The notes under the pieces were generated by a model that was given only the letters and a program-made list of their open reading frames with translations, did no database searches and had not been told where the DNA came from. The position numbers and the translations under genes are program-made. Shown here one piece after another: positions 26,747 through 48,300 of a stretch of 64,000 bases of DNA; the first letter of the stretch is position 1; each line of letters opens with the position of its first letter. The stretch comes from a virus, in IMG/VR virus record IMGVR_UViG_3300009509_000001, positions 64,001-128,000 of that record, one strand, 5' to 3'.

Positions 26747-28267
26747 TTATAGTCTTACCCACCAGACGTAGTCGTCTTCCAGGTGAAGTTCCAATTTGGC
26801 CGTGGCCACGAACTCGTCGACGGCCTGCTTCACCTGTGGTCCGAAGGTCGTGCCGTTGCGCGTCGGGTGGTTGTAGTCGTGGCCCGCCAGTATCCCGCCG
26901 GACTTCACGCGGTTTCGCCACATTGAAATGTCCTTGGACACCGCCTTGTAGCTGTGGTCCGCATCCAGGAACACCAGGTCGAACAGGCTGCCCGGCGTGT
27001 TCCTGTACGCCTGTTCGCTCGTGGCCTTTCGCACACGGATGCGCTTACCATACGGGTACAGCGCCCACATGGCGTCCAGCATGTTTAGTCGATGCCGCTT
27101 GTCGTCCTGGTTGGCGATGTAGTCGCCGGTCGCCGCATACTCGCTGCCCGTCGGCGGCGGCGCCCAGACGTCGACCGCCAGTATGTTGGCGGATGGAATG
27201 GCTGCGGCCAGGTAGGCCGTCGTCTCGCCGCGGTAGACGCCGATCTCGGCGATGCGTGGATTGGCGATCCCATCAAGAAGCCGGTGGAGTACACGGGCAC
27301 GCCCATACGGCGCACGCGGCTCCGGCCGCTCATCATAGCGGGCCAGCTTTATCGGCATCTTCTCGAAGTGCTCCCACTGGCCACTGAAGCCGCTAGTGTC
27401 CTTACGTAGCCACGTAGTGGTGAGTTCGCTTCGATCACTGATCGTCGTGTAGCCACGGATGGCTATGTGCGGAACACCGTCACGAAAAGCCACGACCCAC
27501 CACCATTCCATGCGGCTGCAGCCCTGACCAATGGTTCCGTCTGCCCGAAGCTCGATGTCCCTGGAGTCGTGGCCCACGCGTTCATACTTGTAGAATCCGG
27601 CGAACTCCTGATAAAGCTCGTAATCCTCGAACGGCATGTCCAGGTGATGGCTCTCGGCAAGCTGGTCGCCGGCACTCTGCAATGACCGCCACTTGTGGGC
27701 GCCGATCACGGGGATGCCGGCCTCGATGGATTCCCGCGCCGTCACCAGCCAGTTGAACACCCGTGGCAAATATGATACCTCGACGTCCATAATCCCGACG
27801 GCCATGTTCAATGCCGTCTGCTCCATGAACGGACTTGCGTCCAGTATGACGTCCTCGGTGAGCCGCCGGGCCACCCGCAGATAGTCGGCGTGCCCTCTGT
27901 TCATGATCATGAGACCTGCGTTGAAGTAGTTGGCCGACGTGGCGCCAAACTTCTCCATGCATTCGTCGATGACATGGGCGGCGTAGTTGACGTCCCTTAC
28001 CACCTGGAGCTTGCCGTCAATAACCTCCGCCGGGTTCCATTGTCGGCAGAACAGGATGTCAGCGTCGAAGTAGATCACTGTGTCGGCGTCCACGTAGTCG
28101 AACGCATACGTGCGCATGAGCGACGGGTTCAAGCATCCGCTGTCCTCGTACTCACGGTCACCGAGGATCGTCACGGGCAGGCCCGTACAAAGCTCGAAGC
28201 GCCGTGCCGCTTCCTGCGCCAGCGGCAAGTGTCCGCCGGTTCCTACAGTCAGTCCGATCATATTCAT
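26747..28267 (-). CDS. Glycosyltransferase (GT8-like GT-A) fused to class I SAM methyltransferase
   Basis: YFDAD, YFNAGL, EQTALN; AEIGV..G, LVFLDADHSY, GGILAGHDY. Confidence 0.85.
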   Translation of the reverse strand: MNMIGLTVGTGGHLPLAQEAARRFELCTGLPVTILGDREYEDSGCLNPSLMRTYAFDYVDADTVIYFDADILFCRQWNPAEVIDGKLQVVRDVNYAAHVIDECMEKFGATSANYFNAGLMIMNRGHADYLRVARRLTEDVILDASPFMEQTALNMAVGIMDVEVSYLPRVFNWLVTARESIEAGIPVIGAHKWRSLQSAGDQLAESHHLDMPFEDYELYQEFAGFYKYERVGHDSRDIELRADGTIGQGCSRMEWWWVVAFRDGVPHIAIRGYTTISDRSELTTTWLRKDTSGFSGQWEHFEKMPIKLARYDERPEPRAPYGRARVLHRLLDGIANPRIAEIGVYRGETTAYLAAAIPSANILAVDVWAPPPTGSEYAATGDYIANQDDKRHRLNMLDAMWALYPYGKRIRVRKATSEQAYRNTPGSLFDLVFLDADHSYKAVSKDISMWRNRVKSGGILAGHDYNHPTRNGTTFGPQVKQAVDEFVATAKLELHLEDDYVWWVRL

Positions 28268-30474
28268 CGCAAGCGCTCCCTGCCTTCGTCCCAGTCACGT
28301 ATCTTCAGCGACCAGCCTGGGTCGGGCCACCAACGGTGATCACGGCCGCTCGGATTGAACTCATGGCCGCCGCCGTAGGGTATGGTGAACTTCTCGCCTC
28401 CCGGTGCTCCGCCCCATTTCATGCGGTAATGCGTAGCGTTCCAGTTGCCGAAGGTGTTACGGTTATGCTTGGCATATACCGGGTCGCTGCCGACGGTCCG
28501 GCTTCCGCCGCCACTCTCGATGTCCACCGCGCCTATCTCCATGGGCGCGTCCATGGTCGTCTCCGTACCCGCATTGCATCTGGGCAGGTGGTAGTATTTG
28601 GCCCCAGCCAGTTCGCAACGCCTGACGAAGTCGTTGTCCTCGAAATAGGCCGGGTAAAAGTTCTCGTCGAACCAGCCGACCTTGTGTATGAACGACGTAT
28701 GAAGTCTGAAGGCGTTGAAGCCGCCGAGCATCCACAATACATCGTCGGGGCCGCACGGAACCTGCTCCTCCATATACGCGAGTGTCCCGGGCAGCAGCCG
28801 GGTATCGTTCGAGCTTATGGTTATGCGGTCGTACCCAAGTGACATTCCATGCATGACGATCCTATTCCAGGAAGCGGCCACACCGAGATTGTACCTGGGT
28901 GAATACAGATCGAACTTCAGTTCCCTGGACATGGCCTTCAGCCTGTCGTTGAATTCCTGATCGTAAGTGTTGTTGTTGACTACGAATATATCGGCCGGGT
29001 AGTCGATGGATCGTACGCACTGTTCAAGAAGGTCGATCCGGTTGAGTACCGGTATTCCCACGAACACGCGGCCACTTCCCCCGCCATGGGCCGCCGGGGC
29101 ACTGATCATACGCTCCTCCACTCTACGGCATACGCACAGGAAGGACCAATCTTCCTGCACAGGTTCACATTTGATTACCTCGAATCCACCTATAAGCCTT
29201 ATAACACGGCAAAAGCTGTCCATAGTGAATGAATGCTCATGCGTAGGATCGAGGTTAATGGTTCGGTTGCCTCCACGGCGCAAGCCGTCTTCATCGGGAA
29301 CCACTACGGCCATATGCCCGCCTGTCTTCAGCACACGCTTCCATTCCTGGAGCGTCTTCACGTAGTCTACGTAATGCTCGATGTTGTGTCTGGCTACAAC
29401 GAAGTCCAGTTCCCCGTCCGCAAACATATGTAGATCATCTCCGCTGGCCTGTATATCGGCCTGGCTGGGCTGTCCCGCAGTACAGCCGACGGAACCCCGC
29501 TGGCCGGCAGCTACAAGGTCAACGCCTATACAGTTTGCCGATGACTTTCGATGCCCACACCCGACATCAACTCCTTTACCTTTCAGGCAGTATGGGAGTA
29601 CAGCGAGCCGCTCCGGGTGCATGGCCTCGCCGCCATTCGGCGGAGGGTACAGCATCTGCGCGTATTTACCCTGATCCTCCTGAACTGTGCGGGGCAACGC
29701 CTCGTCCACAGGAACGGCTGTATACCGGTGACGGCGTCCAAACAGATCATCGCCGGTTTCCAGGCACCTTATTATGTGTTCCGGGTTGAGTGCTATCCCA
29801 GCGTGCTCGGTATGCGCGTAGGCCATAAGCTTAGCACATATGGCATCAATGCCTCCCTGGAAGCTATAATGCCACCCGGCCGGGCAATCCAATAAATATG
29901 TGTGCACTCCGCGTTTACGCATGACATCACCGTTAAGGTCCGTTCCACGCATGCCCTCCTCATGTGTGAATATAGTCCCTGCACACCACAAACCTTCCTC
30001 AGCCTGCAGGTAGTTCAGGAAATAGTAATAAGTTCGCGTCGGTACGCGACACTGGTTCTTGGCAGGGTCGAATACCTCGTAAGCCGACGAATGCGGGATC
30101 TCGTCAAGATCGAATACGCCGATGACGTCACGTGGCTCAGAGTGAGGCTGCTCGTGTAGGCATGTGACGTGACAGTCATAGTAGCCCGAAGCCCCCTGGC
30201 TCGTCGTGCTTCGCTGGAAGTTCTCGCGGAACCAGACGCCACCAATCTCCGTAAGGTCGACCATTATGTACTTGATCTTATGATGCCATGGCTTGAAGCG
30301 GTCCCAATTATCCTTCAGGTACAAAGGCTTGTCGGGTCCTGCATGCGCTTGGTTGGCCTCAGCTATGACGAACACGTCGACGATCTCATCCAGTTCTCGT
30401 AGGCGCAGCTCCAATAGATCCAACTCGTTGAAAAAGGTTACACAATCATATACACGGCGTCCGTCTTTTCGCAT
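28264..30474 (-). CDS. Triple fusion: GT17-like glycosyltransferase, SAM methyltransferase, GT2-like glycosyltransferase
   Basis: FFNELDLLELR, DLDEIP, GWHYSF; VDVGCG, HNIEH, RVLKTGG; GWFDENFYPAYFEDND. Confidence 0.85.
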   Translation of the reverse strand: MRKDGRRVYDCVTFFNELDLLELRLRELDEIVDVFVIAEANQAHAGPDKPLYLKDNWDRFKPWHHKIKYIMVDLTEIGGVWFRENFQRSTTSQGASGYYDCHVTCLHEQPHSEPRDVIGVFDLDEIPHSSAYEVFDPAKNQCRVPTRTYYYFLNYLQAEEGLWCAGTIFTHEEGMRGTDLNGDVMRKRGVHTYLLDCPAGWHYSFQGGIDAICAKLMAYAHTEHAGIALNPEHIIRCLETGDDLFGRRHRYTAVPVDEALPRTVQEDQGKYAQMLYPPPNGGEAMHPERLAVLPYCLKGKGVDVGCGHRKSSANCIGVDLVAAGQRGSVGCTAGQPSQADIQASGDDLHMFADGELDFVVARHNIEHYVDYVKTLQEWKRVLKTGGHMAVVVPDEDGLRRGGNRTINLDPTHEHSFTMDSFCRVIRLIGGFEVIKCEPVQEDWSFLCVCRRVEERMISAPAAHGGGSGRVFVGIPVLNRIDLLEQCVRSIDYPADIFVVNNNTYDQEFNDRLKAMSRELKFDLYSPRYNLGVAASWNRIVMHGMSLGYDRITISSNDTRLLPGTLAYMEEQVPCGPDDVLWMLGGFNAFRLHTSFIHKVGWFDENFYPAYFEDNDFVRRCELAGAKYYHLPRCNAGTETTMDAPMEIGAVDIESGGGSRTVGSDPVYAKHNRNTFGNWNATHYRMKWGGAPGGEKFTIPYGGGHEFNPSGRDHRWWPDPGWSLKIRDWDEGRERLR

Positions 30475-30476
30475 AA

Positions 30477-31775
30477 TTACTTATTGTCCTCGAGAATGCC
30501 AAGGCACTCCGAAAGAAGCTCGTCGCGTACCTCCTGGCTGTTTACTTTTATCGGCCCGGCTCCCCTTGTACCGATCCGCTGCCATTCGAGCATGGCTTCC
30601 TTTTCAGGGTACTCCACCAGCCTGTATCCGAGCCGGTGTATCATGTTGGTGAACGGCACTTCACTCATTCCCTCGTGTGCGCTTACACCACGTCGGTCCG
30701 TGATTCGCCAATGCGGCAATATCGGGTATTGCAGGTCCTCGGCAATGGTCTGCTCCCGAACCTTGTACAGTATCTCTCTGGTGGTCACTCCGACGCCGCC
30801 GGAGCAGTGGGGCGCTCCCGGATGCCCTATGCCACCGCACATGCCGACGAATCCGATCTGCTGGCCACCTATTCGTATCATGGTCTCGAGTGCGATCTTG
30901 AACACATTGTCGGCAAGCTGTATGCAGTCGTCCTCCACGAAGAACCAGGAGTCGTACGCATGGTGTAACGTGCGGAAGGCATGATCATAGGCCCCGAACG
31001 ATATGCCGATATTCGGCCGCTCCAGCACGTATATCCGACCGTTCGGCGTCTCCTGACCATGCATACTGTAAAGGAAGTCCATGTTTGCCTTGAACGCGGC
31101 ATCGTCCAATATCGGATCATTGGCAAGCGGATAGTTATGAACGAGCAACGTATCCACCGGCATTCCCTGGTCAAGCGTCAGCTCCTTGGCACAGGTGCAC
31201 TTCAGCACGTTCAGGTAGTCCGCTATGGTCTTCGGCGGCTCCCGCCTGGTGCCTGCCCAGCACGCAATGACCTTGGCACTCCTGCCCGTGTGTCGCGGTA
31301 TCGGATCGGACACGTCCAGCCGCACACCAACGTCGATGTCGGTGGTGTCGGTCTCGTAGAATCCTACGTGCTTGTCCACTTTAAGCGCCCGCACATTCTC
31401 GTGCAGCACCCTTCCCGTGAACGCCTGCAGTCCCATGTCGCGGCCGATCTCGCGCAGGGCTTTGTATGCCTTCCACACGTGTCCTTTGCCACGGGCGCTG
31501 GGGGCTATGTCCATCCCTATGCTCATGGTGCGGTTGACGACGTCCTTATGGCCCGTACGCACATAGCCGACGAACTCGCCGGAATCGCCGTCCTCGATGG
31601 CCAGCCATTCAGGTCGATCCGTCCTGAACCACTCGACGGCCTGCTCGATGGTGTAGGCTTCCTGTGTATGCAGCCACTTCAAAGTGTCCTCATGGTTACG
31701 AATCTCGAGCACGGCCGGAAGATCCTGCTCAGTAAGTTCACGAAATCGTACACTGACGCCCATCACAGTCCCCAC
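30477..31775 (-). CDS. GNAT acetyltransferase (PseH/RimL-like) fused to GT-A-like domain
   Basis: LEIRNH, ARGKG, VLHENVRA; RPNIGISFGAY, FFVEDD. Confidence 0.75.
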   Translation of the reverse strand: MGTVMGVSVRFRELTEQDLPAVLEIRNHEDTLKWLHTQEAYTIEQAVEWFRTDRPEWLAIEDGDSGEFVGYVRTGHKDVVNRTMSIGMDIAPSARGKGHVWKAYKALREIGRDMGLQAFTGRVLHENVRALKVDKHVGFYETDTTDIDVGVRLDVSDPIPRHTGRSAKVIACWAGTRREPPKTIADYLNVLKCTCAKELTLDQGMPVDTLLVHNYPLANDPILDDAAFKANMDFLYSMHGQETPNGRIYVLERPNIGISFGAYDHAFRTLHHAYDSWFFVEDDCIQLADNVFKIALETMIRIGGQQIGFVGMCGGIGHPGAPHCSGGVGVTTREILYKVREQTIAEDLQYPILPHWRITDRRGVSAHEGMSEVPFTNMIHRLGYRLVEYPEKEAMLEWQRIGTRGAGPIKVNSQEVRDELLSECLGILEDNK

Positions 31776-32839
31776 TCGTTTATGGTTTTCACAACATGGT
31801 CACGATCGCTGACGGTGAGCCACCATCCGACGGGTATGGAAATCTGACGGTCGTAAAACATGGAGACGCCTGGAAGATCTCGCGAGTACTGACTGAACGC
31901 CGTGAACTCGTCGTTGCGTCGATGCACGGGGCTCGTCGCTATGCCGGCATCCTCCATATGGGTCTGGAACGCCTGTTTATCGTCTACAAGTATGGTGTAA
32001 ACCCAGTATGATGCACGGTCGTCGTACGGGATGAGCGTCACATGCGGGTTCTTTATGGAGTCTGCGTAGTGCCTGGCATTGGCTCTGTGGGATCCGACGA
32101 CGTATTCAAGGCACTCGAGATTACTGAGTCCGATCGAAGCGTTTATGTCGTTCATGTGGAACTTGAATCCGGCCTCCGCTATATCCTGCGCGCACCTGAA
32201 AGACTTTGAAGACTTCCTGGAAAGCCCGTACCAGCGCAACAGCTCGGCACGCTCGTGCTGATCCGGGGGAACGACCAATATGCCGCCATCGCCGCTGGTA
32301 AGATGTTTGATGGCCTGCAGGCTGAAGCATACATAATCACCGCCGGAGTCGGCGACGTGTCTCCCGTCGTACATGGTGCCGATGGCATGAGCCGCATCCT
32401 CTATGATCGGAATGCCGAATTTACGCAATGCCTCGTAGTCGCATGGAACCCCGGCCCAGTCCACGCATACGATTGCTTTGGTCTTGTCGGTGATAAGCCG
32501 CTCGACGGATTCAGGGTCTATGAGCCCTGTAGTCGCGTCGACGTCCGCCCACACGATGTCGGCACCGGAGTTTCGTATGGGTGTGTTCGTCGCCGAGCAT
32601 GTCATCGGTGTCGTTATAACCTCATCCCCGGGGCCGGCGTCCACCATATGAAGGGCGAGAGTTATCGCCGACGTCGCCGAATTCACCGTAAGCGGTCGGC
32701 GCTCACTGTTGAAATAAGCCCGTAGCTTCTCCTCGAACAGGTCCACCACCGGACCCTGGCCTATATATCCGCTATTCAGAACTTCGGTGACGGCGCGTGG
32801 TGCCTCGTCGGACATAAACACCTTGAACAATGGAATCAT
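31763..32839 (-). CDS. DegT/DnrJ/EryC1/StrS PLP-dependent sugar aminotransferase
   Basis: NSATSA, TPMTCSAT, IEDAAHA, FSLQAIKHLTSGDGG, GFKFHMND; AAGGAG RBS. Confidence 0.95.
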   Translation of the reverse strand: MIPLFKVFMSDEAPRAVTEVLNSGYIGQGPVVDLFEEKLRAYFNSERRPLTVNSATSAITLALHMVDAGPGDEVITTPMTCSATNTPIRNSGADIVWADVDATTGLIDPESVERLITDKTKAIVCVDWAGVPCDYEALRKFGIPIIEDAAHAIGTMYDGRHVADSGGDYVCFSLQAIKHLTSGDGGILVVPPDQHERAELLRWYGLSRKSSKSFRCAQDIAEAGFKFHMNDINASIGLSNLECLEYVVGSHRANARHYADSIKNPHVTLIPYDDRASYWVYTILVDDKQAFQTHMEDAGIATSPVHRRNDEFTAFSQYSRDLPGVSMFYDRQISIPVGWWLTVSDRDHVVKTINEWGL

Positions 32840-32864
32840 GTGCGTCTCCTTTGCGTTACGATCT

Positions 32865-32893
32865 AAAGTAGCGGAACTTGCCGCCGGTGTCAA
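32865..32893 (-). promoter_or_regulatory. Sigma70 promoter of the glyco-operon
   Basis: TTGACA-N17-TACTTT. Confidence 0.8.
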
Positions 32894-33202: not shown

Positions 33203-35119
33203 CTATTCGTACGTCGTGACGTCGGGGGCGGCCGGCGGCAGGCCCTGCTGCTTGCGGCGCTCGTTGAGTTTACGCTGCATGGCCTGCATCTTCTGGATGC
33301 TCAGCTGCTCTTCCCGTCGGTTCTCTTCGATGGCGCCGCTTACGTCCGTGTACAGGCCGGGTATGTCACTCGGCCCGAACTTCGGGTTGCTAATGGCGCC
33401 GACGAACGCCGGGTTGTTCACGAAGTCGCCCTGGAACCGCTCGCCGAGCATGCCGCCCACGCCCTTGCGGATACGCTCCGGGTCGCCGGCCGCATCGCGC
33501 TTGATCTTGGCGATGTCCCACAAAGCCTTGTTGATCTGTTCGCGGGAGAGCTGCTCGCGGAACTCCGGCTTTATCGGCAACAGGTCCAGGTTGCGCATGG
33601 TCTTCTCGAGACTCGGGTGATCGCCGTACGAGCCGGCCTTGCCCTTGCTGAGATCCAGGGACGGTGCCGGTGTCTTGTGCTTGGCATAGGCCAGGGCCGC
33701 GGCCGCTCCGCCCAGGCCGAGGCTTGCAAGCCCCCAGCCCAACCGGTTCTCGGGACTGTTCATGGCCTTGATCGCCGAGTAGGCGCTGCCGGCACCGGCC
33801 AGACCCGCGCCGATCTCGTACTTGTAATCCTTGGCGTTCTCCCACATGGCCTTGCCGGCCTTCTTCCAGTCGAAGGCGCTGGTCTTGCGCAGGTCCTTCA
33901 CGTTCTGGTCGGCCATGGCCTTGCGCTTCTTCAGGCTCTTGAGCAGCATGCGGTCGGACTCAGCCGTGTCGGGCTTGCCGGCGAACCGCTTGTTCATGGC
34001 ATGAAGCAGGTACGGCAGTGCCGCGCCGCCCAGGCCGCCAAGCGTGCTCCACAGCAGCTTGTTCTTGTCGGCCGTCAGCCAGCCGAGGCTCGATCCCAGC
34101 GTGCCGCCCACCAGGCCGGCAACCACCGGGTTGAAATTGTATTTGTCGCTCTTGGCCTGCTCGTCGCGCACCAGCTTGGCGTCCTCGAAAGCGGCCAGCT
34201 TGTCGTTGATGTCCATCTGTGCGGCAAGGGCCGCATCGGTCTGGGCACTCCTGCCGCTCTTGTCGGCTTTGCCCACCATCATCTTGTCGGCGACGTACGC
34301 CGATCCCATCGGTACGGCGCCGGCCACTGCGGTCTTGGCCGCCCGTGCCATCGGACGCTGCCGGCCCGCATAGGCCCTGGGCGCCGATCCGAGCGGTCCC
34401 TCGACGCGTTTGCCGACGGCGCTCATGGCGCTTCGTGGCGTAAGCGGGATCTCACGGCCGAGCGTCGGATGGTCCTTGATGTATTTCTTGGCCTTCTTGC
34501 CGCCGAGCAGGTACATGAGGGCGGCGCTGCTGACGCCTGCGGTGGCGCCCATCTGTGCCGTCTCCTTCTGCATGTTGATGCCGAACAGTGGATCGTCCGG
34601 GTAGTCGACCTTGCCGACCGTGGCCTTCTTGTCGCCGTAATGGGCCTGCGCCCCGACGTGCGGCTCTTTGCCGCCGAGTATCAGCTCGACGTTCCCGCCG
34701 ACGGTCTCGCCGCTCGGTTCGATCTTAACCGGGTTGTACTCTCCGACGGTGCGGGCCACGTCGCCGACCTTGCGCTTGACGCTCTCGGGTAGAACGGTGC
34801 TCAACCCTTCCTTGACGCCCTTGATGCCCCTGAGCGTGTCGACCAGTGGCGGCAACGCCGTGTCGATCACCTTGCCGGTGAAATCCTTGTCGCGTCCCGC
34901 CGCTTCGTCGATCTTCGCCTGCTCTTCCGGCGTGCGCTGGCTGCGGCCGTACATCGACAGCATGACCGCCGGTGTGCCCAGCCGCAGGGCTGTGCTGCCC
35001 ATGGCCTTGGGCGCCGCCTTCATGCGGAGAACCGCCGCCTTGCGCTTCCAGGGGTTGGTGAAGAGGGTGCCTTTGCCGGCCGCCGTCTTCTGTATCGGTT
35101 TGTCGAGCAGACGTCCCAT
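33203..35119 (-). CDS. Putative virion protein (KTA leader, multiple Gly zippers)
   Basis: MGRLLDKPIQKTAA; several GxxxG hydrophobic pairs. Confidence 0.8.
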   Translation of the reverse strand: MGRLLDKPIQKTAAGKGTLFTNPWKRKAAVLRMKAAPKAMGSTALRLGTPAVMLSMYGRSQRTPEEQAKIDEAAGRDKDFTGKVIDTALPPLVDTLRGIKGVKEGLSTVLPESVKRKVGDVARTVGEYNPVKIEPSGETVGGNVELILGGKEPHVGAQAHYGDKKATVGKVDYPDDPLFGINMQKETAQMGATAGVSSAALMYLLGGKKAKKYIKDHPTLGREIPLTPRSAMSAVGKRVEGPLGSAPRAYAGRQRPMARAAKTAVAGAVPMGSAYVADKMMVGKADKSGRSAQTDAALAAQMDINDKLAAFEDAKLVRDEQAKSDKYNFNPVVAGLVGGTLGSSLGWLTADKNKLLWSTLGGLGGAALPYLLHAMNKRFAGKPDTAESDRMLLKSLKKRKAMADQNVKDLRKTSAFDWKKAGKAMWENAKDYKYEIGAGLAGAGSAYSAIKAMNSPENRLGWGLASLGLGGAAAALAYAKHKTPAPSLDLSKGKAGSYGDHPSLEKTMRNLDLLPIKPEFREQLSREQINKALWDIAKIKRDAAGDPERIRKGVGGMLGERFQGDFVNNPAFVGAISNPKFGPSDIPGLYTDVSGAIEENRREEQLSIQKMQAMQRKLNERRKQQGLPPAAPDVTTYE

Positions 35120-38909: not shown

Positions 38910-39233
38910 TTAACGGGGTATGCGCCGTTGCACCAGCTCCTGCCGGGGCTTGAAGTCACGGTCCACGTAACCGCCCCGATTGTAGCTGGCTTTGCTGACG
39001 TTCATCGGCTGCTTGCTGGCCACGTTGGCTGGGTCGATCGGTGCACCCTTGATCTCGCGGCTTCCGGTCGGGCTCTGGCCACGCTTCATCCGTGCCAGGT
39101 TCTGTTGACGGAGCTTCTCGGCTGCCGCCTTCTTCGCTTGGGCCGCCCGCTGCATCTCCATCATCTGTTGCCGGGCGGCGGCGTTGCGATCGAAAGCCGT
39201 CTTGCGGATCAACGCGTCTTTGAGATGTCCCAT
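38910..39233 (-). CDS. Small basic putative virion protein (KTA leader)
   Basis: MGHLKDALIRKTAF; AGGAGG RBS. Confidence 0.8.
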   Translation of the reverse strand: MGHLKDALIRKTAFDRNAAARQQMMEMQRAAQAKKAAAEKLRQQNLARMKRGQSPTGSREIKGAPIDPANVASKQPMNVSKASYNRGGYVDRDFKPRQELVQRRIPR

Positions 39234-39242
39234 GGTCGCCTC

Positions 39243-40517
39243 CTACTTCTTAGTGGCGTCGTACTTGTGCTGGGCCACGATGGCCTTGCGGGCACCAGGG
39301 CTCACGCGGCCTTTGAAGTTGACGTTCGGGTACTTCTTCTTGGCGGCCTTCAGGCCCATGTTCTCGGCCTTGGTCTCAGCCTGCTCGACCTTCAGGTTCT
39401 TGCGGCCGGCCGCGGCGTCCGTCTGTTCACCGACGGCGACTGCGGCCTGCTTCGTGAGCAGGGCTGCCACCAGGTCGTTGACGACTTCATGCTTGACGCT
39501 TGCGGCCTTGCTGAGGTCTGCCCGCTCGTTGGCACGGGGCCTGGCCGGCGGGAACGTGCTCGGTGTCAATGACGGGGCGCCCAGTCCCGGCTTGGGCGGA
39601 TACTTCTTGCGGATCATCTCGTAAATCTTGCGCTTTTTGCTCTCCGGGCTTTCCTGCACGGCGCTTGGCTGAGTGGCGCCCGGCATTCCCAGCGGGGCGA
39701 TGGGCTTGGGCATCGTCTGTACGCCGGCGGCGACTCCGCCTGCGTTGCCGCCCTGCCGCACGGATTCTAAAATGCCTTTGCCGATTCTGCTGAGATTTCC
39801 GGATCTGGCAGTTTTACGGATAAGTGCTTCAGTTAACAGTCCCATTGGTGTGTCTCCTTGTTGTTCTGCGGTCTTCGGCAGCTGGCGGCCTTCGCTCATC
39901 TGCTGTGCAAGTATCTTCCAGTCTTCGGGCGTCATGGTTTCGCGCCGTGCCATCCAGCGGCCGAGGGCGCTGCCCATACCGGTACCGAGTGCGGCACCGC
40001 CCAGTCCACCGGCCACTCCGCCGATTGCGGCGGCGGTACCCTTGGCGTCGTCACTGGCCTTGTTGAACAGGGCGAGCATGATCGCCGCACCCATGCCGGC
40101 GCCGGTGGCTCCGCCGACCAGACCGCCGCTTGCGCCGCCCAGTCCCTGGAGTGCAGCGGACTCGAGCCGGCTGCTGCCACGGGCGGGTCGGGCCAAACCA
40201 TGAGCGGCACCACCCACGAACGGGATGGTCTGGATCAAATCTGTCTTGTCGTCGAAGGCGGCGGCTTTCATGATCACCGGGCCACCCTTCTCGTTGGCGG
40301 CGTCAAGCGCTGCCTGAGCCTGGGACTTCAGCTTCTCGGCCTCAAGTTCCTTGGAATGCGTGTCGACGTACCACTGGGCAGTGCGCCGCACATGCTCCGG
40401 CGTATTCGGATCGTCGAGTACGGCCTGGGCCTTTTCGATCTCGGCGGCCTTGTCGACCTTGAACATATCCATGAGTCCGGCAGTCTTGCGGACGAGGGCA
40501 TTTGCGAGTAGCGGCAT
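39243..40517 (-). CDS. Putative virion protein; in-frame tandem of two KTA-leader units (second ATG at 39845)
   Basis: MPLLANALVRKTAG and internal AAGGAG-RBS MGLLTEALIRKTAR. Confidence 0.75.
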   Translation of the reverse strand: MPLLANALVRKTAGLMDMFKVDKAAEIEKAQAVLDDPNTPEHVRRTAQWYVDTHSKELEAEKLKSQAQAALDAANEKGGPVIMKAAAFDDKTDLIQTIPFVGGAAHGLARPARGSSRLESAALQGLGGASGGLVGGATGAGMGAAIMLALFNKASDDAKGTAAAIGGVAGGLGGAALGTGMGSALGRWMARRETMTPEDWKILAQQMSEGRQLPKTAEQQGDTPMGLLTEALIRKTARSGNLSRIGKGILESVRQGGNAGGVAAGVQTMPKPIAPLGMPGATQPSAVQESPESKKRKIYEMIRKKYPPKPGLGAPSLTPSTFPPARPRANERADLSKAASVKHEVVNDLVAALLTKQAAVAVGEQTDAAAGRKNLKVEQAETKAENMGLKAAKKKYPNVNFKGRVSPGARKAIVAQHKYDATKK

Positions 40518-40740
40518 ATCTGGATCTCCTGTATGATTCGGTGTTAGTCGCTTCCTGTTAATATACTCCACCGGTTTCGCGCACGCAAGCAACGACCCCG
40601 GTCTGCGGATGGCACGGCACACGCCTCGTCGGGCAGGCCCCCTTACGGGGCCTCGATGGTTTGCATGCGCTTACACGTTGTCCGTGTGCAATCCGTTGCC
40701 CCGGAGGGGCACCTGTTCGTTCCGGAAAATGTCCTGGATT

Positions 40741-43566
40741 TCATTTGCCGACCGCCCGCTTCACCATGGTCTTGATCTTGCCGGTGTTTTTCGTGACGCC
40801 CTTGGCCTTGTCGTCGTATATGGCGGTGCAATACATGTCCTTGACGCAGGTGATGGGCAGTACCTGGCCAATGTGGGCCATGCACCACTTGTCGATGTGG
40901 TAGCGGGCCTTCCCGTCGTCGCCGCTTGCCCGGGCAGTCAGGATCTTTACCTTCTTGCCGTCGGCGAGCCATGCCTTTACCCGGTCGACCATGGGCTTGA
41001 TCGGTGCGCCGATGTGGCCACGGCCCTTCCATTCGGTATATCGGGCCAGCGTGCCGTCAAGGTCCACGCCGATCCATTCCTTTGCCGGGTCGTATTTGAG
41101 GGCTTTCTTGTGCAGGTCGTATCGTTGTGCGGCCGCCCGCAGCTCTTCCTGCGGTATGCCGACGTTGTGTTCATTGAGCTTGGGCCGTACGGCGTCGGCC
41201 GGTACCCGGAACATACCGCACAGCTCGCGCAGCTTGGCCTCCAGCTGGTCGGCGTCCATCGCCGCGGTCTTCCGCAGCCGTCGACTCAATGCCAGTAAAG
41301 CGGGTGCCGCCAGTGCACCGGTCGCTCCGCCGGCCAAGGCGCCGATAAGCTTGTCGTCGGCGAGCCATGCGCCGGCCGCTCCGCCCAGGCCCAGCCCGGC
41401 CAATGCCGCAGTGCCGTAGCCGCCCGGTGCCTTGGCCTTCGGCTGTTGCGGCTGCGGTTGTGGCCGTGGCGTCTGTGTGACCTGCGGTTCGACGCCTGTT
41501 TCGGGTTCGCCGTTATCGCGCATGAGCAATGCCGTGCCGCCGGCGGTGGCCGCAGTCGCCGCAGTGGCGATCGCCGCCTTCTTGCCGGTCGACATCTTGC
41601 CGGTCGCCGGCGGGTCGGTGATTCTTGCCGTGGGCTTGGCCGGCGGTGGATCGGTGATGCGTGCCGTGGACTTGGCGAAAGGCTCCGGTGCCGGCAGGGG
41701 CTCGAACCACGACCTGTTGTGCGTCGGGTCCGCGTTCCAGTCGTCGCCGTAGCCCATGACCGTTCTTGAATTTACGTTGCGCCCCTTTCCGGTCGCTTCC
41801 TGAAACTTCAGCGCCGTATCCATGTATTCGCCGGCGGCCCGCGAAAGCTTGTCGGAGTCTACGTTGCCCCTGAGCGACGGGTCTTTGCGCAGGCGATCCT
41901 TTATCGCCATGCTGACGTCGTACGGCCCGCGGCCGGACGTGTACGTGTGTCCCGGGTGGACGCGATCGATCAGCTTTTGATGGAGCCGCTGGGCGCGCGG
42001 ACCCTCCAAGTACCGCATCGCGTCCATGTACGGCATTTCGCCGGCCTTCTCGTACATGCGCTTCAGCACGCCGAAAGCGCGGGTCGCGTCCGACTCGAAC
42101 TTGAACGCCGGCGTCTTGGCCGCAGCGGTCTTCGGCAGCAGGTTGCCGACCACCACGAGCCGGTCGCGAAGGCTCGGATTCGCCATGAGCCTGAAATGGG
42201 CGTCCGCCTGCTTCTTCAGCTGCTTGGCCTTGGCGCTGGTGGTCGCCGCCACCGGACCGCCGGCCGGCAACAGCTTCTTGATGCGCAGCGCCAGGAGCTT
42301 GCGGCCGTTGATGGTGGGCTGGCCGTTCTCGTCGGTTCCTATACTTTCAACCTTCACAGGCTTGTTCTTGAATCTGCCTACGAGAACGGTGTCGCCCATC
42401 TCTATGTCGAGCACGATCTTCGCGATCTTGCGCAGCCGCGGGTCGGCCAACCGCTGCTTCAGCCGGATCTCCCGGTCGATCGCCCTGATGTCCATGTGGT
42501 AAGTTTTTATCTCAGCCTGCTTCGCCAGGGGCTTGAGCTCTCCCTTGGTCGGGCCGTCGCTCATGGCCCATTCCTTGAATTCGGCCCACGGCAGTTCGAC
42601 CACGGCGCCGTCGCGGTCCCAGCCGTCCTCGTAGTTCTGCCGGTAGGCTTGCACCGCCTGCTGCTTCGTGACGTAGCCGATCATGCACTTGTGCTCGTCG
42701 AACTTGCCGTCGGCGTCCAGCTGGTTGATCACGTACACGCTCTCGGCGTCCCATATGGTCTCGTCGTGGGGTATGCCCGGATTGATGAAGACGTCGAGAT
42801 GATCCTTGTCGTAGCCCCTGCTGCCGCGGATGTAGCCGTAGTCGTCCCACATGGTCTGGCTCCATTCGTTACCGTCGTCGTCCACTCCGCTCCTGACGGA
42901 CTTGAACGGGTTCTCGATGCTGATGTCCAGGCCGTCGATGGTTACGTGCGCCTTCTTGTAGTTCTCGGCCTTGATCTGGGCCTCGGTCGGCTGTAGCTCC
43001 ATGTCCTGGCCCTTGGCCACCCCATGCTCGACCTCCGCGGCGGTCTTGGCCAGGCGCGGTATGAGCAGCGTACTGTAGCGGTCGGCCGGGTTGCTCCACC
43101 GGATGGCGCTGATCGGAAACTTCTGGCCGCTCACGAAATTGGCGAGCCGTGCGTACTTGGCGGGGTCCACGTCCTTCTTCAGGTAGGCGACGGTGACGTG
43201 CGGCCGGTAGGTCTTGTGCGTTTCGCCCGGCATCCTGACGCCGGCGCGCACCGCCTTGTTCAATGCATGCAGGTCCGGACTGTCGACGTCGAACTTCAGC
43301 ACCTTGTAGTCGCCCTGGTCGAAGTGACTGAGCCCGCCGACGGTACCCTGCCCCTGCAGGATTTCCTTGATCGCCTCCTTCGTGGAGCGCGGGTCGTCTT
43401 CTTCATGCCCGTAGGCAAGCGTGACGTGTGGATGCTTCTCGAGGCCGAACCCGTCCTCGTCGTACAAATCCTCCTTGGCGATGGCGCGCTGGATCATAGC
43501 GATCCGAAGCGCCACGCTCCTGGGCATGTCGATGCCCATCCAACCGTATGATTTTTCTTTAGCCAT
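40741..43566 (-). CDS. Polyvalent protein: 2H phosphoesterase (Acb1-like), InPase-like domain, small beta domain, TM/Gly zipper, HAD phosphatase
   Basis: Two HxT motifs (PHVTL, PHVTV); PTEAQ..AENYKK..ISIENP...YGYI...D.DHLDVF...FDEHK; DLDGT...LTAR...IYDD. Confidence 0.85.
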   Translation of the reverse strand: MAKEKSYGWMGIDMPRSVALRIAMIQRAIAKEDLYDEDGFGLEKHPHVTLAYGHEEDDPRSTKEAIKEILQGQGTVGGLSHFDQGDYKVLKFDVDSPDLHALNKAVRAGVRMPGETHKTYRPHVTVAYLKKDVDPAKYARLANFVSGQKFPISAIRWSNPADRYSTLLIPRLAKTAAEVEHGVAKGQDMELQPTEAQIKAENYKKAHVTIDGLDISIENPFKSVRSGVDDDGNEWSQTMWDDYGYIRGSRGYDKDHLDVFINPGIPHDETIWDAESVYVINQLDADGKFDEHKCMIGYVTKQQAVQAYRQNYEDGWDRDGAVVELPWAEFKEWAMSDGPTKGELKPLAKQAEIKTYHMDIRAIDREIRLKQRLADPRLRKIAKIVLDIEMGDTVLVGRFKNKPVKVESIGTDENGQPTINGRKLLALRIKKLLPAGGPVAATTSAKAKQLKKQADAHFRLMANPSLRDRLVVVGNLLPKTAAAKTPAFKFESDATRAFGVLKRMYEKAGEMPYMDAMRYLEGPRAQRLHQKLIDRVHPGHTYTSGRGPYDVSMAIKDRLRKDPSLRGNVDSDKLSRAAGEYMDTALKFQEATGKGRNVNSRTVMGYGDDWNADPTHNRSWFEPLPAPEPFAKSTARITDPPPAKPTARITDPPATGKMSTGKKAAIATAATAATAGGTALLMRDNGEPETGVEPQVTQTPRPQPQPQQPKAKAPGGYGTAALAGLGLGGAAGAWLADDKLIGALAGGATGALAAPALLALSRRLRKTAAMDADQLEAKLRELCGMFRVPADAVRPKLNEHNVGIPQEELRAAAQRYDLHKKALKYDPAKEWIGVDLDGTLARYTEWKGRGHIGAPIKPMVDRVKAWLADGKKVKILTARASGDDGKARYHIDKWCMAHIGQVLPITCVKDMYCTAIYDDKAKGVTKNTGKIKTMVKRAVGK

Positions 43567-43592: not shown

Positions 43593-43629
43593 AAAAGAAA
43601 AGGCAGGGTCCTTAAAGGAACCTGCCTGG
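43593..43629 (-). terminator. Terminator separating early-type genes from the virion operon
   Basis: GGCAGG...CCTGCC stem followed by TTTTCTTTT. Confidence 0.75.
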
Positions 43630-43729
43630 ATAATCGGATGATGATGTTACCGGTAATATACACCGGCCATCATCACCCTGCAACCCACATCTTGTGGTTT
43701 GCGTGCGTTTTTTCTCAATATCTTGTGGT

Positions 43730-44113
43730 TTATCCGGCGAACAGATGCCGCAGACGGCTCACGAGGCCCGTGAAGTCGAAGTGCGGCCAGTTCTGATGGT
43801 TGACGATCCGCTGCATGAATTCGCCGCGCTGCTCGTCCATGAGCCTGCAGGCGATCTCGTACTTCTTGCGGCGCAATACGAACGTGCATCCGTAGATGTC
43901 CGAGTCGAAATGCTCCTCGTCGGTCTCCTCGCACAGGGCCACGCGGACCCGGTAGTGGCAGTTGACGATGTCGGTGCTCAGCCGCAGGGTGGCGACGAGT
44001 TCGCAGAACTGGTAGTCCTCGTCCTCTTCGTCCCGTTCGCACGGCGGGTTGAACTCGATGACTCCGAGCGCTCCGAACATCTGCGCCCTGGGCGCGTCGA
44101 TCAATACGTTCAT
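43730..44113 (-). CDS. Hypothetical protein
   Basis: 127-aa ORF with AAGGA RBS. Confidence 0.65.
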   Translation of the reverse strand: MNVLIDAPRAQMFGALGVIEFNPPCERDEEDEDYQFCELVATLRLSTDIVNCHYRVRVALCEETDEEHFDSDIYGCTFVLRRKKYEIACRLMDEQRGEFMQRIVNHQNWPHFDFTGLVSRLRHLFAG

Positions 44114-44679
44114 GATATTTCCTTGATTAGCTTTTCATACATCTTGACCACCGCCTTCGAGTGTTCGACGTTGGCCTTCCATTGGTCGCACAGGCGCTGC
44201 ATGCGTCGCCTGTGCAGGTCCAGTATCAGCTCGGGCACGAGGCTCGACACGTAAAGCGTCGGCTTCTCGACCATCCACTCGGGTGCCGGCTCGGTGAGCC
44301 AGTACTCCTGCAGGATGGGGCAGCGCCACGAACTGACGTTGCCCGCCTGCACGTAGCCCGGTTCCATGTCGATGAGCCGGTACTGGATGCGCACGCTTGG
44401 CCGGTCGTGCCGGTTGCTGTAGCCGCTGCAGAAGACCTTGACCGCCACGCCGAGCGCGCGGTCGGGCTTCTTCACATGCTCGAACATGCCGTGGTCGTCG
44501 GCCACCTGGTCGTCCAGGGACTCGACCTCGAGCGCACGGCACAGGAGCCTTGCGGTCTTGGCGCTCGGCTCCATGTGCCCGTTCTCGATGCGGCTGATGT
44601 GCTGGTACGACACGTCGGCACGCTTGGCCAGTGCGGCCTGGGTGAGGCCACGGGCCTTCCGCAGTTCGCGCAGGTTCAT
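44110..44679 (-). CDS. XRE-family HTH protein with C-terminal extension
   Basis: LRELRKARGLTQAALAKRADVSYQHISRIENG. Confidence 0.85.
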   Translation of the reverse strand: MNLRELRKARGLTQAALAKRADVSYQHISRIENGHMEPSAKTARLLCRALEVESLDDQVADDHGMFEHVKKPDRALGVAVKVFCSGYSNRHDRPSVRIQYRLIDMEPGYVQAGNVSSWRCPILQEYWLTEPAPEWMVEKPTLYVSSLVPELILDLHRRRMQRLCDQWKANVEHSKAVVKMYEKLIKEIS

Positions 44680-45350
44680 CAGTACGCCTTCCCGCCGTGG
44701 CGGTGCGACCGCGTGGCGTTGTAGCGTACCTTGGCGATCATGGCGCCGACCACGTCCATCTTGTTGCCGGCACTGAAGTCCAGGATGCGGATCATGGTGT
44801 CGGCCAGCTCCTCCTCGATGCCGCTGAACTCCTGAATGTGGTCGCTCGGCTTGTTGCCCTTGCGATCCCACTCCATGGCCTCGGCGAGCTCGCTCACCAT
44901 AAGCATGAAGTTCGTGGCATTGTTGTTCGGGTTCTCCCACCAGCCGTTCGCGCGGTTGACGGCGTGCAGCTGCTGCTGGAACTTACGGAGATCCGGCAGG
45001 TCCAGGAAGTCGCTTTCGTCCTTGACGTCCCAGGGGAACGGATAGGTCTCCATGACTTCCCAGTGAAGGGCCGCAAGCCCCGTGCCGAACGACCTTACCG
45101 AATTCATCAGAAGGCAGAAGGTGCCGGTGTTCGCGTACTTGTCGTGCACGTTGATGCCGTTGATGGTCGTCTTCTCGGGATCGATGCCACGGGACTTCTG
45201 GTACTCGAACAGGTTCTGCGGCAACGCGATGAACGGCTGCTTGCCGCGCTCGCGCTTGTACAGCTCGGCGAGCGCCGAGTCGAGCGCGTGCAGAAAGCTC
45301 CTGGTGTCGTCCAGGCTCATGCCCGGAATGGCATTAAGCAGAGTGCTCAT
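44679..45350 (-). CDS. MazG-like nucleotide pyrophosphohydrolase
   Basis: GWW...LMVSELAEAME..R...EEELAD..IRILD...K..YN..R...HG. Confidence 0.85.
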   Translation of the reverse strand: MSTLLNAIPGMSLDDTRSFLHALDSALAELYKRERGKQPFIALPQNLFEYQKSRGIDPEKTTINGINVHDKYANTGTFCLLMNSVRSFGTGLAALHWEVMETYPFPWDVKDESDFLDLPDLRKFQQQLHAVNRANGWWENPNNNATNFMLMVSELAEAMEWDRKGNKPSDHIQEFSGIEEELADTMIRILDFSAGNKMDVVGAMIAKVRYNATRSHRHGGKAY

Positions 45351-48300
45351 GATTGGTTCTCCAGTTGATGCATGGCCAGCCGCAGGCCGACCCAATGCTG
45401 TTTCAATGTGTGTGGCATGACCTCGCCCCAGAGCCAGGGGTCGTAGTCCGTCCAGTTGGCGCCCAGGAACTGCTCGCCGTTGGTGGCGAGCCAGTGGCTG
45501 AACTCGTCCTTGTTGGCCGAGGCGGCTTTGGCCTCGCGCACCAGGTCGAGATCCACGTGCTCGTCGTACTCCAGCAGATCCTTGACGTTCTCGTCGATGC
45601 GGCGCTCGCACTCGTTCGTGTCCCAGTCCATCCAGCGACGGCCGCTGCCGTCGGGACTTGCCTGACACTTCTCGTGCAGATAGCTGATGCCGCACTTGGC
45701 CCAGCCGTCGAGCCGCATGTTGTCATACACGCCGTAGATGGCTTCGCCGCAGTCGCCGCGCACGATCAGGCTGTTGCCGACCGCCATGAAGATCATGAGG
45801 TAGCTGCTGCTCGTGGGCCGGCCCCAGATCAGGTAGTCGATCTGGTTGCCGTTGTCGACCTGGCCGGCGTGGCGCTTGGCCAGGTGGTCCTTGAAGTCGT
45901 TGGCGATCATCTGAACGCCGCGGTCTTCGTGGTGATGGGGGAACAACGCTTTAAGATCCACGTTCGGCCTCCTTCGACGGGAAGGTCAGTGCGTGCGACT
46001 CCATGGCGTCCTTCACCTCGTACTTCTTGCCGATGAAGGTGCTTCCGTGGTCGTCGTCGAACCAGCCCTCGAACTCGCGACTGCTCACGCGTTCGATCGT
46101 GGCCTTGCGGCCGTTGAACACGTACTCGGTCTTCGGACCCTTCTTCGGCTGTGCCGGGAAGATGTGGGCCAGACAGTGTTCGTCGATCTTGGTCACGGGC
46201 TCCGGGTTGTACATGGTCGGATGCTCTTCAGTGAACTTCCGGGCCTTGGCGCGCTGCCGGATGAGGCTGCGGCCCGTGGCGTAGAAGTTGGCGTTGAGTA
46301 TGGCCTCCATCCGGTCGATCTCGATCGCCATCTGGTTGAAGAGGTGCTTGTCCTTCTCGGTCTCGCACTTGGCCGCCAGGTCGTCGATCTCAAGCTGCAC
46401 GAGGGCGCCGATCTCGTGCATGAGCGTCGCCAGATACATGATGGCGTCGGTCTTGGATTCGTTCTCGATCGAGTCCGATGCCCAGTCGAAGGCGTTGCAC
46501 GGGCACTCGGCCGTGCAGTCGGCGGGGCAGTCCAATGCCTCCTGGTCGTCGCGCAGCTTGAGAATGCGGGTCTTGAACTCCGCGGCTTCCTTGCCGCCCT
46601 CGTCTTCGTCCGGGAACCAGGTCCCGATGTCTTCGAGTATGTTGTACAGGGTCTCGATGGTCTCTGCTCTATTCATCGATGGTTCCTCCATTTCGTTTGA
46701 TTACGTCAATGAGACCTTCCTCGGTTTCGACCGACAGGCGGCCGTGATTCTCGGAGATCTCCTTGAATATGTTCTGAAGCGCGGTCAACATGTCGGCCTC
46801 GGCGTCGGGCCGATCGACCGGGCGGTGGCCCGCGCGCCGCATCATTCTGACCCAGCGCTCGCGCAGCTCCTCGCAGTATTGGGCGGTGTCCACGCGTTCG
46901 CAGCAGCCGCCGTTCAGCATCAGGTAGGTGTTGCCGTCGCAACGCTCCTCGATGCGGTATCCTTTTTCTTCGTCAGCCATTGGTGTTCTCCATTAGTTCA
47001 TTATTGCTTCGAACAGGCTCTTGGCCCAGTCCGCTACTTGGGATGCGGCTGCCACCAGGACGAGCAGCACCCCCACGCAGCAGCAACAGCCTGCTCCGCC
47101 GTCATCGCTGCCGCTGTCGTTGACATGTGAGCCTTTGACGTTGACGCGTCCAGGCTTTCTGTAGCCGTCAAGCTGCCGTGGGAATCGCCGGGTGTGTGGT
47201 TTACGGTCGTGTCCCATGTCACTGCGGCTCCAGTTCGGACGCGGCGATCACGTCCTCGACGGTTATGAGTTGATCGTCTTCAACCGGGTCCCGCTCCGGG
47301 AATCTCCAGTAGGAGATGGGTCCCGGGAACCACGGATCCGTGCCATAGTAGAATCGAAAGCCCTTGACCGGGTCGACGCCGTTGATGTAGACGCCTGCCC
47401 AACGGTCTTTCGAATCCTTCGCCACCATGGCCTCGCAATGCCCCTTCGGGCCTGCGCGGAGCATCCGCACCAGATGGCTCATGGCCTTGTCATAGCGCTC
47501 CTGTTGTTCCTTGTTCATTGTTCGAGCTCCAGGAACGCGTTTACGGTTTCGATCCAGCACTGCCTGCAGTCGGCGTCCATGTCGCACGCGCGCTTCAGGC
47601 CGAACTTGGTGTGGGACCACGGCTTCAGGTCCTCCGGCGGGCAGTCGCCGATCGGCGCGTGTGCGTCGGCCAGGCGGTCGACCACCTCGGGAAGTTCGTG
47701 CACGATCACCCGGAATCTGTCCATGTTCATTTTGCTCAGCTCTTTAACGTGGGTCTGCGCCCACAGCTGGCCGTCCTGATCCATGAACACCGGGAAGTCG
47801 TCGTACAGCCGATCCTCTTCGATGTGCCATATGCTGAATTTCATAACGTGAAGATTATCTCCTCGATGTCTTTGCGCAGGGCCATGGTGTAGCCACGGTC
47901 GATGGCTTCCTTGGCCTTTGCGCTCTTGAACGGTTTCTTCTTGTCGGCCAGCCGCTCCGCGAGCATGTGCACGTCCGCGGTTGTCTGGGTGCTCTCGACT
48001 ACGATGTCGTATCCGTCGAGCTCCCGGTTTATCAGGAACAGGATGTTCCTGGGGAGCCCCTGGACTTCGACGTGACTTACGATTACGGTCTGCATACTCA
48101 GTCTCCGAACGCTTCGGGGTTCTTGCGGCGCCACCAGCCCTCGACCTTGATCAGGCAGGGCAGGCCCGGCAGTTGTCCGACGGGTGGATCGGGCATGGCC
48201 CCCTTCATGATGTAGGGGGTCACGCTCTTCGGAATCCATATCTGGACCTTGGTGGACTCGATCTCCATCAGCCGCGCCTTTTCGCTTTCGCGGATAAGGA

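Follow-up and report, generated by a model that had tools for sequence, protein, structure and literature searches.

The window analysed here comprises 64,000 nucleotides (bases 64001-128000) of a 194,576-bp record, IMGVR_UViG_3300009509_000001, which is a single virus genome with direct terminal repeats, rated 100% complete. An uninterrupted open reading frame (ORF; P0001) of 941 amino acids starts with ATG on the minus strand of the window (40741..43566), exactly where a preliminary description of this DNA had placed it, and it combines unrelated effector domains (2H phosphoesterase, InPase and HAD phosphatase) in one phage polypeptide. On balance, we consider it probable that the product is a polyvalent head-cargo polyprotein of the phage, which the prohead protease would cut at sites of the consensus [LI]-x-K-x-A; eight such sites are present in the chain. 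Packaging, cleavage, injection and substrates we infer from the domains, the motif statistics, and the distribution and conservation of both. We attribute the motif to the prohead protease as the simplest explanation for the places in which it occurs, namely the capsid N-terminus, the scaffold-like proteins and the protease candidate, the ends of leaders and the joints between enzyme cassettes. Every module boundary bears a motif that is common to capsid and head-assembly proteins, which points to that protease.

Joints of the 941-amino-acid chain

The preliminary description had read the chain, in this order, as a 2H phosphoesterase with two HxT motifs at the N-terminus, an InPase-like domain, a small domain, a region with a TARITDPP duplication and a Gly zipper, and a HAD phosphatase with DLDGT, TAR and DD. 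Profiles, motifs and models bear out both the order and the identities. It had also proposed that K-x-A sites limit the domains, and the motif does fall at domain boundaries: all five sites that it listed are there (Lys in positions 174, 349, 452, 479 and 766), together with three of the same form that it overlooked (amino acids 378-382, 818-822 and 934-938). The joints are located in linkers between domains, and joints 1 and 7 lie in low-confidence parts of the structural model. In its broader form, [LIVMFY]-x-K-x-A, the motif occurs eight times in the protein compared with 2.6 ± 1.6 times in shuffled sequences, and 17 of 5000 shuffles reach eight.

All joints and modules have minus-strand coordinates in the window. 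Joint 1 (L-A-K-T-A, amino acids 172-176; 43039..43053) follows the last strand of the 2H domain, where the predicted local distance difference test (pLDDT) of the model falls, and the InPase homology blocks of the relatives begin beside it, at amino acids 168-172. Next to joint 2 (L-A-K-Q-A, 347-351; 42514..42528), the homology block of the relative P0005 ends at amino acid 353. Joint 3 (L-R-K-I-A, 378-382; 42421..42435) closes a leader-like spacer of 31 amino acids (352-382); in all relatives K-[IV]-A stands immediately ahead of the small module, and the homology blocks begin at amino acids 373-380. The blocks of P0003, P0004 and P0187 end at amino acids 452-455, at joint 4 (L-K-K-Q-A, 450-454; 42205..42219), and those of P0006 and P0011 end at 477-482, at joint 5 (L-P-K-T-A, 477-481; 42124..42138), which closes a second leader-like spacer, 27 amino acids long. 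Joint 6 (L-R-K-T-A, 764-768; 41263..41277) comes after the Gly zipper. Joint 7 (L-H-K-K-A, 818-822; 41101..41115) abuts the HAD core in a stretch of the model with low confidence; the blocks of P0005, P0015 and P0187 start at amino acids 823-825, and a counterpart K-x-A precedes the HAD module in P0005, P0015, P0018 and P0025. The last, joint-like site 8 (M-V-K-R-A, 934-938; 40753..40767) lies three residues from the C-terminus, and a V-K-K-V-A site is found near the C-termini of P0003 and P0004.

The short peptides between sites (amino acids 352-382, 455-481 and 769-822) resemble the N-terminal leaders of neighbouring genes: in both, [LI]-x-K-x-A comes after a stretch that is hydrophobic or contains Pro. 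Ahead of the joints there is often a proline or a short helix of the leader-like kind. Such leaders, about 13 residues long with the pattern M-x-x-L-x-x-[AP]-[LI]-x-K-T-A, are carried by four minus-strand genes of the window (38910-39233, 39243-40622, 33203-35119 and 1563-2363), and the 459-amino-acid ORF among them holds a second, internal copy. We regard the leaders of these genes as candidate capsid-targeting leaders.

The motif in the genome and in the head module

Throughout the predicted proteome, [LIVMFY]-x-K-[TQ]-A is found 37 times, compared with 6.8 ± 2.7 times in shuffles (about a fivefold excess). The density of the broader motif reaches 6-7 per 1000 amino acids only at 40-60 kb and at 100-110 kb of the genome and is about 1 elsewhere. 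The first of these regions is the head module, which also contains genes for a multisubunit RNA polymerase, and the second contains the 941-amino-acid ORF and its downstream neighbour. In the head module the capsid protein (phrog_2522) has a single site, at amino acids 24-28, and the scaffold-like proteins carry six and eight.

Seven sites are present in the protease candidate of the head module, a protein of 480 amino acids (genome 49268-50710, which is L001:5268-6710, minus strand). Its ESM features match a cluster of 'prohead core protein protease' at 0.96 and the S77, S78 and S80 clusters at 0.91-0.92, and tblastn gives a weak match to gp19 of phage G, which is listed as a head maturation protease (PMC12484599). 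The candidate is about twice as long as a bare prohead protease domain, and its sites at amino acids 240 and 280 lie just past the region of homology to gp222 of Salmonella phage Arash and to phage G gp19, a place that would suit the removal of a C-terminal propeptide. The same short site is present in the capsid protein, the scaffold-like proteins, the protease candidate and the cargo, as in the capsid-targeting sequence (CTS) system of T4.

This distribution bears on an explanation in which the protein never enters the virion and acts as a cytoplasmic multi-enzyme protein, the motif being a flexible linker or a recombination joint for the shuffling of modules. Module boundaries that coincide with the motif are what shuffling joints would lead us to expect, the gene is distant from the head module, a helix-turn-helix regulator and a MazG-like pyrophosphatase are located upstream, and the gene has an upstream hairpin and an AT-rich box of its own. 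On the other hand, a motif of five residues (15 nucleotides) is too short for homologous recombination, its density is near background in the remaining proteome, and such an explanation would not account for its presence at the capsid N-terminus, in the protease, in the scaffold-like proteins and at the ends of the leaders of unrelated proteins. We consider it improbable.

The 2H module and its relation to Acb1

Module 1 (amino acids 1-171; 43054..43566) is a 2H phosphoesterase. The domain alone matches PF13563 above the cut-off (E 1.1e-14) and LigT_PEase with 26.9 bits, and its NCBIfam match is TIGR02258, RNA 2',3'-cyclic phosphodiesterase (33 bits). The H-x-T motifs in positions 47-49 and 123-125 (H47-V-T49 and H123-V-T125) are invariant across 38 relatives of the domain, and in the AlphaFold2 (AF2) model, which has a pLDDT of 95.8 and in which the fold begins at residue 8, they are placed on the two-lobe alpha/beta fold of the 2H superfamily. 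The model has 46 matches to 2H structures of the PDB at E <= 1e-3. At the same threshold the family comprises 3557 proteins, and the domain is frequently found inside proteins of 2000-5000 amino acids.

The preliminary description had linked this domain to Acb1, and the link holds in part. In a profile search against the PDB, Acb1 ranks first (9q2g, E 8.7e-10; 7t26, 8.4e-6), ahead of LigT-like proteins (3e-5), and 32 of 38 short relatives of the domain match the Acb1 family PF23474. However, the domain itself stays below the PF23474 cut-off of 27 bits, with 25.2 bits for the domain alone and 20.2 bits for the whole protein, and in structural comparison with viral models generic 2H proteins of phages rank ahead of Acb1. 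Foldseek against the PDB places the poxvirus phosphodiesterase of cyclic GMP-AMP (cGAMP), Usb1 and LigT-like proteins above Acb1 and does not separate Acb1 from them; among the viral models of BFVD, generic phage proteins that resemble cyclic phosphodiesterases (CPDases) or are named '2'-5' RNA ligase' come first, and named Acb1 appears from rank 14. No literature was found on the source phage of PDB 9q2g. Acb1 (PF23474; PDB 7t26, 9q2g) shares with this domain the 2H fold, the two H-x-T motifs and a phage origin, but it is a free protein of about 150 amino acids, whereas here the 2H domain is one module in a chain of 941 and scores below the family cut-off. The Acb1 identity of the 2H domain is thus only partly supported by these comparisons.

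The InPase domain, the small module and the Gly-zipper region

Module 2 (amino acids 190-345; 42532..42999) is an InPase domain, an OB-fold domain that resembles type I pyrophosphatases and is found in polyvalent proteins. PF18823 matches amino acids 195-334 over profile positions 1-134 of 135 (E 4.5e-49; 166 bits against a cut-off of 26.8). The acidic residues E218, D253, D255, D258, D290 and E291 are retained in 15 divergent relatives, so that a full-length match above the cut-off is accompanied by conserved acidic metal-binding residues. The domain is present in 488 phage records, and the InPase-like domain of the preliminary description is this PF18823 domain, which is known from phage polyvalent proteins (PMC5512222).

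The third module (amino acids 383-449; 42220..42420) is small and conserved: it is shared by 13 proteins at 65-87% identity (best E 4.7e-33), and it is the sole module that the relatives P0003, P0004, P0005, P0007 and P0010 all have in common. It has no match in Pfam or in the PDB. Look-alikes in the ESM Atlas (features 0.82, TM about 0.5) are viral proteins with a fused domain of the nucleotidyltransferase or zeta-toxin kinase type, which is a weak lead only.

Module 4 (amino acids 482-763; 41278..42123), which has no match in Pfam, NCBIfam or the PDB, consists of an unassigned region, a Pro/Thr-rich stretch and two hydrophobic helices of the Gly/Ala-zipper type (amino acids ~714-762), in this order. 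Both features named in the preliminary description are present in it: the octapeptide T-A-R-I-T-D-P-P is exactly duplicated in the Pro/Thr-rich stretch (amino acids 634-641 and 646-653), and the Gly-zipper pair has an equivalent in P0003 and P0004. Hydropathy peaks in positions 664, 718 and 740, and the zipper segment appears membrane-like. Segments with Gly zippers are common in ejection proteins.

The HAD module and the question of end healing

Module 5 (amino acids 823-933; 40768..41100) is a cap-less HAD phosphatase, recognised by the four HAD motifs, the fold and phrog_415. The motifs D-L-D-G-T (835-839), T-A-R (877-879), K909 and D-D (918-919) are invariant in 31 relatives, and the core of the AF2 model has pLDDT >90. 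The protein has the DxDxT, T/S, K and DD series of the superfamily on a Rossmann-like core, and the fold confirms the earlier reading of this module. Since no Pfam match was obtained, the assignment relies on these motifs, the fold and PHROG 415 (polynucleotide kinase; E 1.4e-5). The best structural match is the 3'-phosphatase of T4 Pnkp (5uj0_B; VIA Z 9.6, root mean square deviation 2.5 Å over 100 residues, 18% identity), and Pnkp1 of the Pnkp1/Rnl/Hen1 repair complex (4xrp) reaches Z 8.7. Other small HAD phosphatases, BT_0820 (2obb) among them, come within one Z unit of the best match, and for this reason the substrate is not readable from the fold. With the 3'-phosphatase domain of T4 polynucleotide kinase/phosphatase (5uj0, 1ltq) the module shares the cap-less HAD fold with DxDxT, but the 941-amino-acid chain lacks a kinase domain.

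The HAD module is fused elsewhere, in other phages, to portal-type (PF06381) and Mu-like head (PF10123) proteins. In one other lineage (P0019, P0021, P0024, P0026, P0027, P0028 and P0040) a conserved stretch of hydrophobic residues stands ahead of it and ends in L-L-E-G-D, which looks like a protease site of the T4 type, [LI]-x-E; this suggests that different lineages place the same cargo module behind cut sites of their own.

What the enzymes act on can be read in two ways, which concern function and are compatible with any view of packaging. On the one hand, they could destroy nucleotide signals of the host. On the other hand, they could heal ends, as the preliminary description had also proposed. 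In that case the 2H domain would open the 2',3'-cyclic phosphates that anticodon nucleases of the host, or other nucleases independent of metal, leave behind, and the resulting 3'- or 2'-phosphate would be taken off by the HAD domain of the Pnkp type. The T4 Pnkp 3'-phosphatase and the Pnkp1 RNA-repair complex are the nearest structures to the HAD module, which supports end healing, as do the TIGR02258 match of the 2H domain, the precedence of CPDase and '2'-5' RNA ligase' models over named Acb1 among its closest viral models, and the relatives P0022 and P0188, which join HAD/2H modules to DNA ligase and LigD 3'-phosphoesterase domains. However, neither an Rnl2-type ligase nor RtcB was found in the genome (the search for Rnl1 was uninformative), the chain has no kinase module, and the 2H profile finds its best sequence relatives of solved structure among Acb1 proteins. 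Moreover, one relative carries an HD_4 hydrolase module of the RelA/SpoT type, and such a ppGpp-hydrolase-type module points to small-nucleotide targets. End healing is a plausible reading that we would adopt only with hesitation, and signal destruction and end healing seem roughly equally likely.

Relatives and the exchange of modules

Searches of phage and IMG/VR records gave no close relative of the whole protein. By megablast, the region had no match among 50,697 phage records; tblastn with the whole protein gave matches to the InPase domain only, and no record spans at least 80% of the query; and a scan of IMG/VR gave 17 loci, all of them InPase-only relatives, with no close relative of the 941-amino-acid protein. 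Pfam and NCBIfam have no match for amino acids 352-768 or for the HAD module, and phmmer with single domains against the PDB gave nearly none.

Relatives of the protein from metagenomes (P0003, P0004, P0005, P0007, P0010, P0015 and P0187) keep the small module and exchange the others. The modules swapped in include GNAT, HD_4 of the RelA/SpoT type, a ParB-like segment, a C-terminal domain with HExxH, Peptidase_C39 with a methyltransferase, and the LigD 3'-phosphoesterase. In these relatives [LIM]-x-K-x-A is present at every junction. The internal ends of pairwise BLAST blocks are a median of 7 residues from the nearest site, compared with 39 for random positions, and 61% of them, compared with 17% of random positions, lie within 10 amino acids of a site. 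P0012, a distant InPase protein of another lineage, has a domain boundary without the motif. In the contigs of P0010 and P0004 (L004 and L005), downstream genes start with K-x-A-ended leaders that resemble those of the genes at 38910-39233, from about 40517 downward and at 33203-35119 of the window, and the bodies of these proteins have no BLAST similarity to those of the present genome.

The first residues of the ORF are kept in P0003, P0004 and P0007, and because of this conservation the ATG is taken as the true start; the public gene call (P0002), which begins nine residues downstream of it, is probably too short.

By capsid and protease, Salmonella phage Arash and three Vibrio phages come nearest among cultured relatives, with an identity of ~25-33%. 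The major capsid protein of Arash is 25% identical to the capsid protein here, and its single site (amino acids 25-29) aligns with the site at amino acids 24-28. The syntenic head proteins gp220-gp226 of Arash (OQ632216, 138696-163592) contain 9, 2, 6, 8, 1, 6 and 1 copies of the motif, respectively, and all of them were detected in the virion by mass spectrometry, together with RNA polymerase subunits (PMC10585845).

Proposed cleavage at the joints, or packaging of the uncut chain

Packaging of the 941-amino-acid protein is suggested by the occurrence of InPase and 2H domains in polyvalent proteins, by the fusions of the HAD module to head proteins and by the Gly-zipper segment. No MuF or portal domain was found in the protein or its immediate neighbours, and its link to the virion runs only through the shared motif and through PF06381 and PF10123 proteins of other phages that are joined to the HAD module. 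Late in infection, the chain would be loaded into the prohead, where the prohead protease would cut it at the joints, which would free the small enzymes from one another and from the spacer peptides. The cut would be made after Lys, with the spacing of T4 [LI]-x-E, or after Ala; considering that [LI] has the same distance to the charged residue as in the T4 site, it may fall after Lys and not after Ala. Cutting on the Ala side would yield fragments of 176, 175, 31, 72, 27, 287, 54 and 116 residues and a C-terminal remnant of three residues. At the next infection these fragments would leave the head together with the virion RNA polymerase and the DNA. The injected enzymes would have nucleotides, or the ends of RNA and DNA, as their substrates, in which they would attack phosphoester or phosphoanhydride bonds. 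The destruction of host immune signals and the reversal of nuclease damage are the likely purposes.

Several points weigh against this view. The protein has no N-terminal leader of its own, unlike CTS-type cargo. In SPN3US every mapped cut takes off a propeptide, in most cases an N-terminal one, and the prohead proteases of T4, phiKZ and SPN3US mostly trim N-terminal propeptides and do not separate folded enzymes (PMC10052503). The protease call is founded on language-model features and a weak BLAST match, not on fold or catalytic residues. Arash has no homologue of the 941-amino-acid protein or of its 2H domain. The gene is ~35 kb from the portal gene and ~55 kb from the capsid gene, and sugar-modification genes and many small genes separate it from the head genes.

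It is also conceivable that the protein is packaged uncut, the motif and the leader-like helices serving as docking tags that bind the scaffold, the protease or the portal. A binding tag would fit the motif at leader ends and joints equally well, and the virion RNA polymerase of N4 and polyvalent proteins of the ArdC type travel unprocessed. Several polyvalent proteins are delivered at full length (Iyer et al., PMC5512222), and Arash gp223 and gp221 were recovered at 100% peptide coverage from virions despite their many sites (PMC10585845). However, the N-terminal capsid site that is conserved in two distant phages is in the classic place of maturation cleavage and not in one where cargo would dock; the scaffold-like proteins and the protease candidate, which are the usual substrates of self-destruction, contain the motif at high density; and [LI] two residues ahead of a charged residue mirrors the [LI]-x-E cut site of T4. 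Considering both sides, we find delivery of the uncut chain unlikely, and cleavage by the prohead protease is the reading that we retain.

Two other proteases were considered as the cutter and rejected on motif grounds, in view of their established specificities: signal peptidase I, which requires small residues in positions -1 and -3, and the C39 peptidase, which is specific for Gly-Gly.

Known systems and the meaning of the joints

Two components of this picture are already known, namely polyvalent phage proteins with 2H and InPase domains, and the leader with a prohead-protease site for head cargo. In T4, short N-terminal leaders end in the gp21 site, which is also found in the capsid protein, the scaffold and the cargo (IPI-III, Alt), and the T4 cargo enzymes are injected with the DNA. 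The leaders here likewise end in a site in which [LI] lies two residues ahead of a charged residue. The differences are that the code is [LI]-x-K-x-A and not [LI]-x-E, that the proteases are weakly related, and that the leader-like elements are placed between folded enzymes in a chain that has no leader at its N-terminus. With phiKZ and SPN3US (gp175/gp245, A/S/G-x-E) this phage shares its large size, a multisubunit RNA polymerase and a protease motif common to the head proteins, whose propeptides have multiple sites in those phages (PMC10052503). However, the cuts mapped in SPN3US remove propeptides and the motif is another one, whereas cuts at the sites here would part catalytic domains from each other; among cultured phages, Arash and not phiKZ is the closest relative.

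The 2H and InPase domains have been described in polyvalent proteins that are predicted to be packaged and to counter nucleotide signalling of the host (Iyer et al. 2017, PMC5512222). The 941-amino-acid protein resembles these in having several unrelated effector domains per chain, with the same InPase and 2H domains among them. In contrast, the processing proposed for them is by a built-in metallopeptidase (MPTase) or is absent (PMC5512222), and the chain described here contains no MuF, portal or MPTase domain. The literature yielded no description of a K-x-A prohead-protease motif, nor of its use between folded enzyme cassettes, so the [LI]-x-K-x-A code of the Arash-related clade and its use between cassettes appear undescribed.

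More generally, and more tentatively than for the single protein, we suggest that a clade of large phages that package RNA polymerase (this phage, its metagenomic relatives and Arash) could have an undescribed prohead-protease code, [LI]-x-K-x-A, which doubles as a plug-and-play joint for cargo. The cassettes between joints (2H, InPase, HAD, GNAT, HD, ParB-like) would be loaded, cut free and injected, and phages could swap them as units of leader and cargo inside a single gene. If the joints are cut, a tailed phage would use a true polyprotein strategy, in which one late gene provides several small enzymes that are present at DNA entry, before phage genes are expressed. The code would also provide a sequence rule that predicts the injected proteome of a poorly known clade, a cultured Salmonella phage included; the cassettes between joints in the relatives would form a catalogue of candidate counter-defence enzymes; and the motif might serve as a tag for loading foreign proteins into capsids. 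The polyvalent-protein concept of 2017 would thereby gain a concrete processing mechanism, the enzymes themselves being of known families. Arash could be the experimental model for the cleavage code, with gp220, gp222, gp223 and gp225 rich in [LIVM]-x-K-x-A.

Gene surroundings

Just upstream of the gene, a hairpin followed by a T-run (43596..43630, minus strand) resembles a terminator, for which the evidence is weak. A C-T-A-T-A-T-T-A box stands 12 nucleotides ahead of the ATG of the 941-amino-acid ORF. The form Y-T-A-T-A-T-T-A has 11 copies in this genome of 60% GC, compared with about five expected, and several of these are 7-94 nucleotides upstream of ORF starts; copies are located at window positions 43578 and 43660 (minus strand) and at genome positions 28094, 5403, 181958 and 185977. 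The box may be a promoter element of the phage, in which case the gene would have a very short leader. A scan for sigma-70 promoters gave results at chance level.

In the leader-bearing gene at 39243-40622 (minus strand), the N-terminus of the leader type begins at an ATG near 40517, with a T-A-T-A-T-T-A box just upstream of it at 40565, and the GTG at 40622, which is listed as the start, is probably not the true one. For an ORF of 881 amino acids, the PHROG comparison gave no confirmation that it is the sheath.

Directly upstream of the polyprotein gene, 44110-44940 and 44679-45695 (both minus strand) encode an HTH_3 regulator (E 2.2e-17) and a MazG-like protein. The match of the latter to the pyrophosphatase phrog_5658 is C-terminal (E 5.6e-25), so that a second nucleotide-hydrolysing enzyme adjoins the polyprotein. 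Downstream of the leader-bearing genes, genes that resemble methyltransferases, glycosyltransferases, acetyltransferases and aminotransferases are clustered at 26747-32893 (minus strand), and this cluster may serve to modify DNA or virion with sugars. An RmlD-like gene occupies the equivalent position in contig L005 of a relative.

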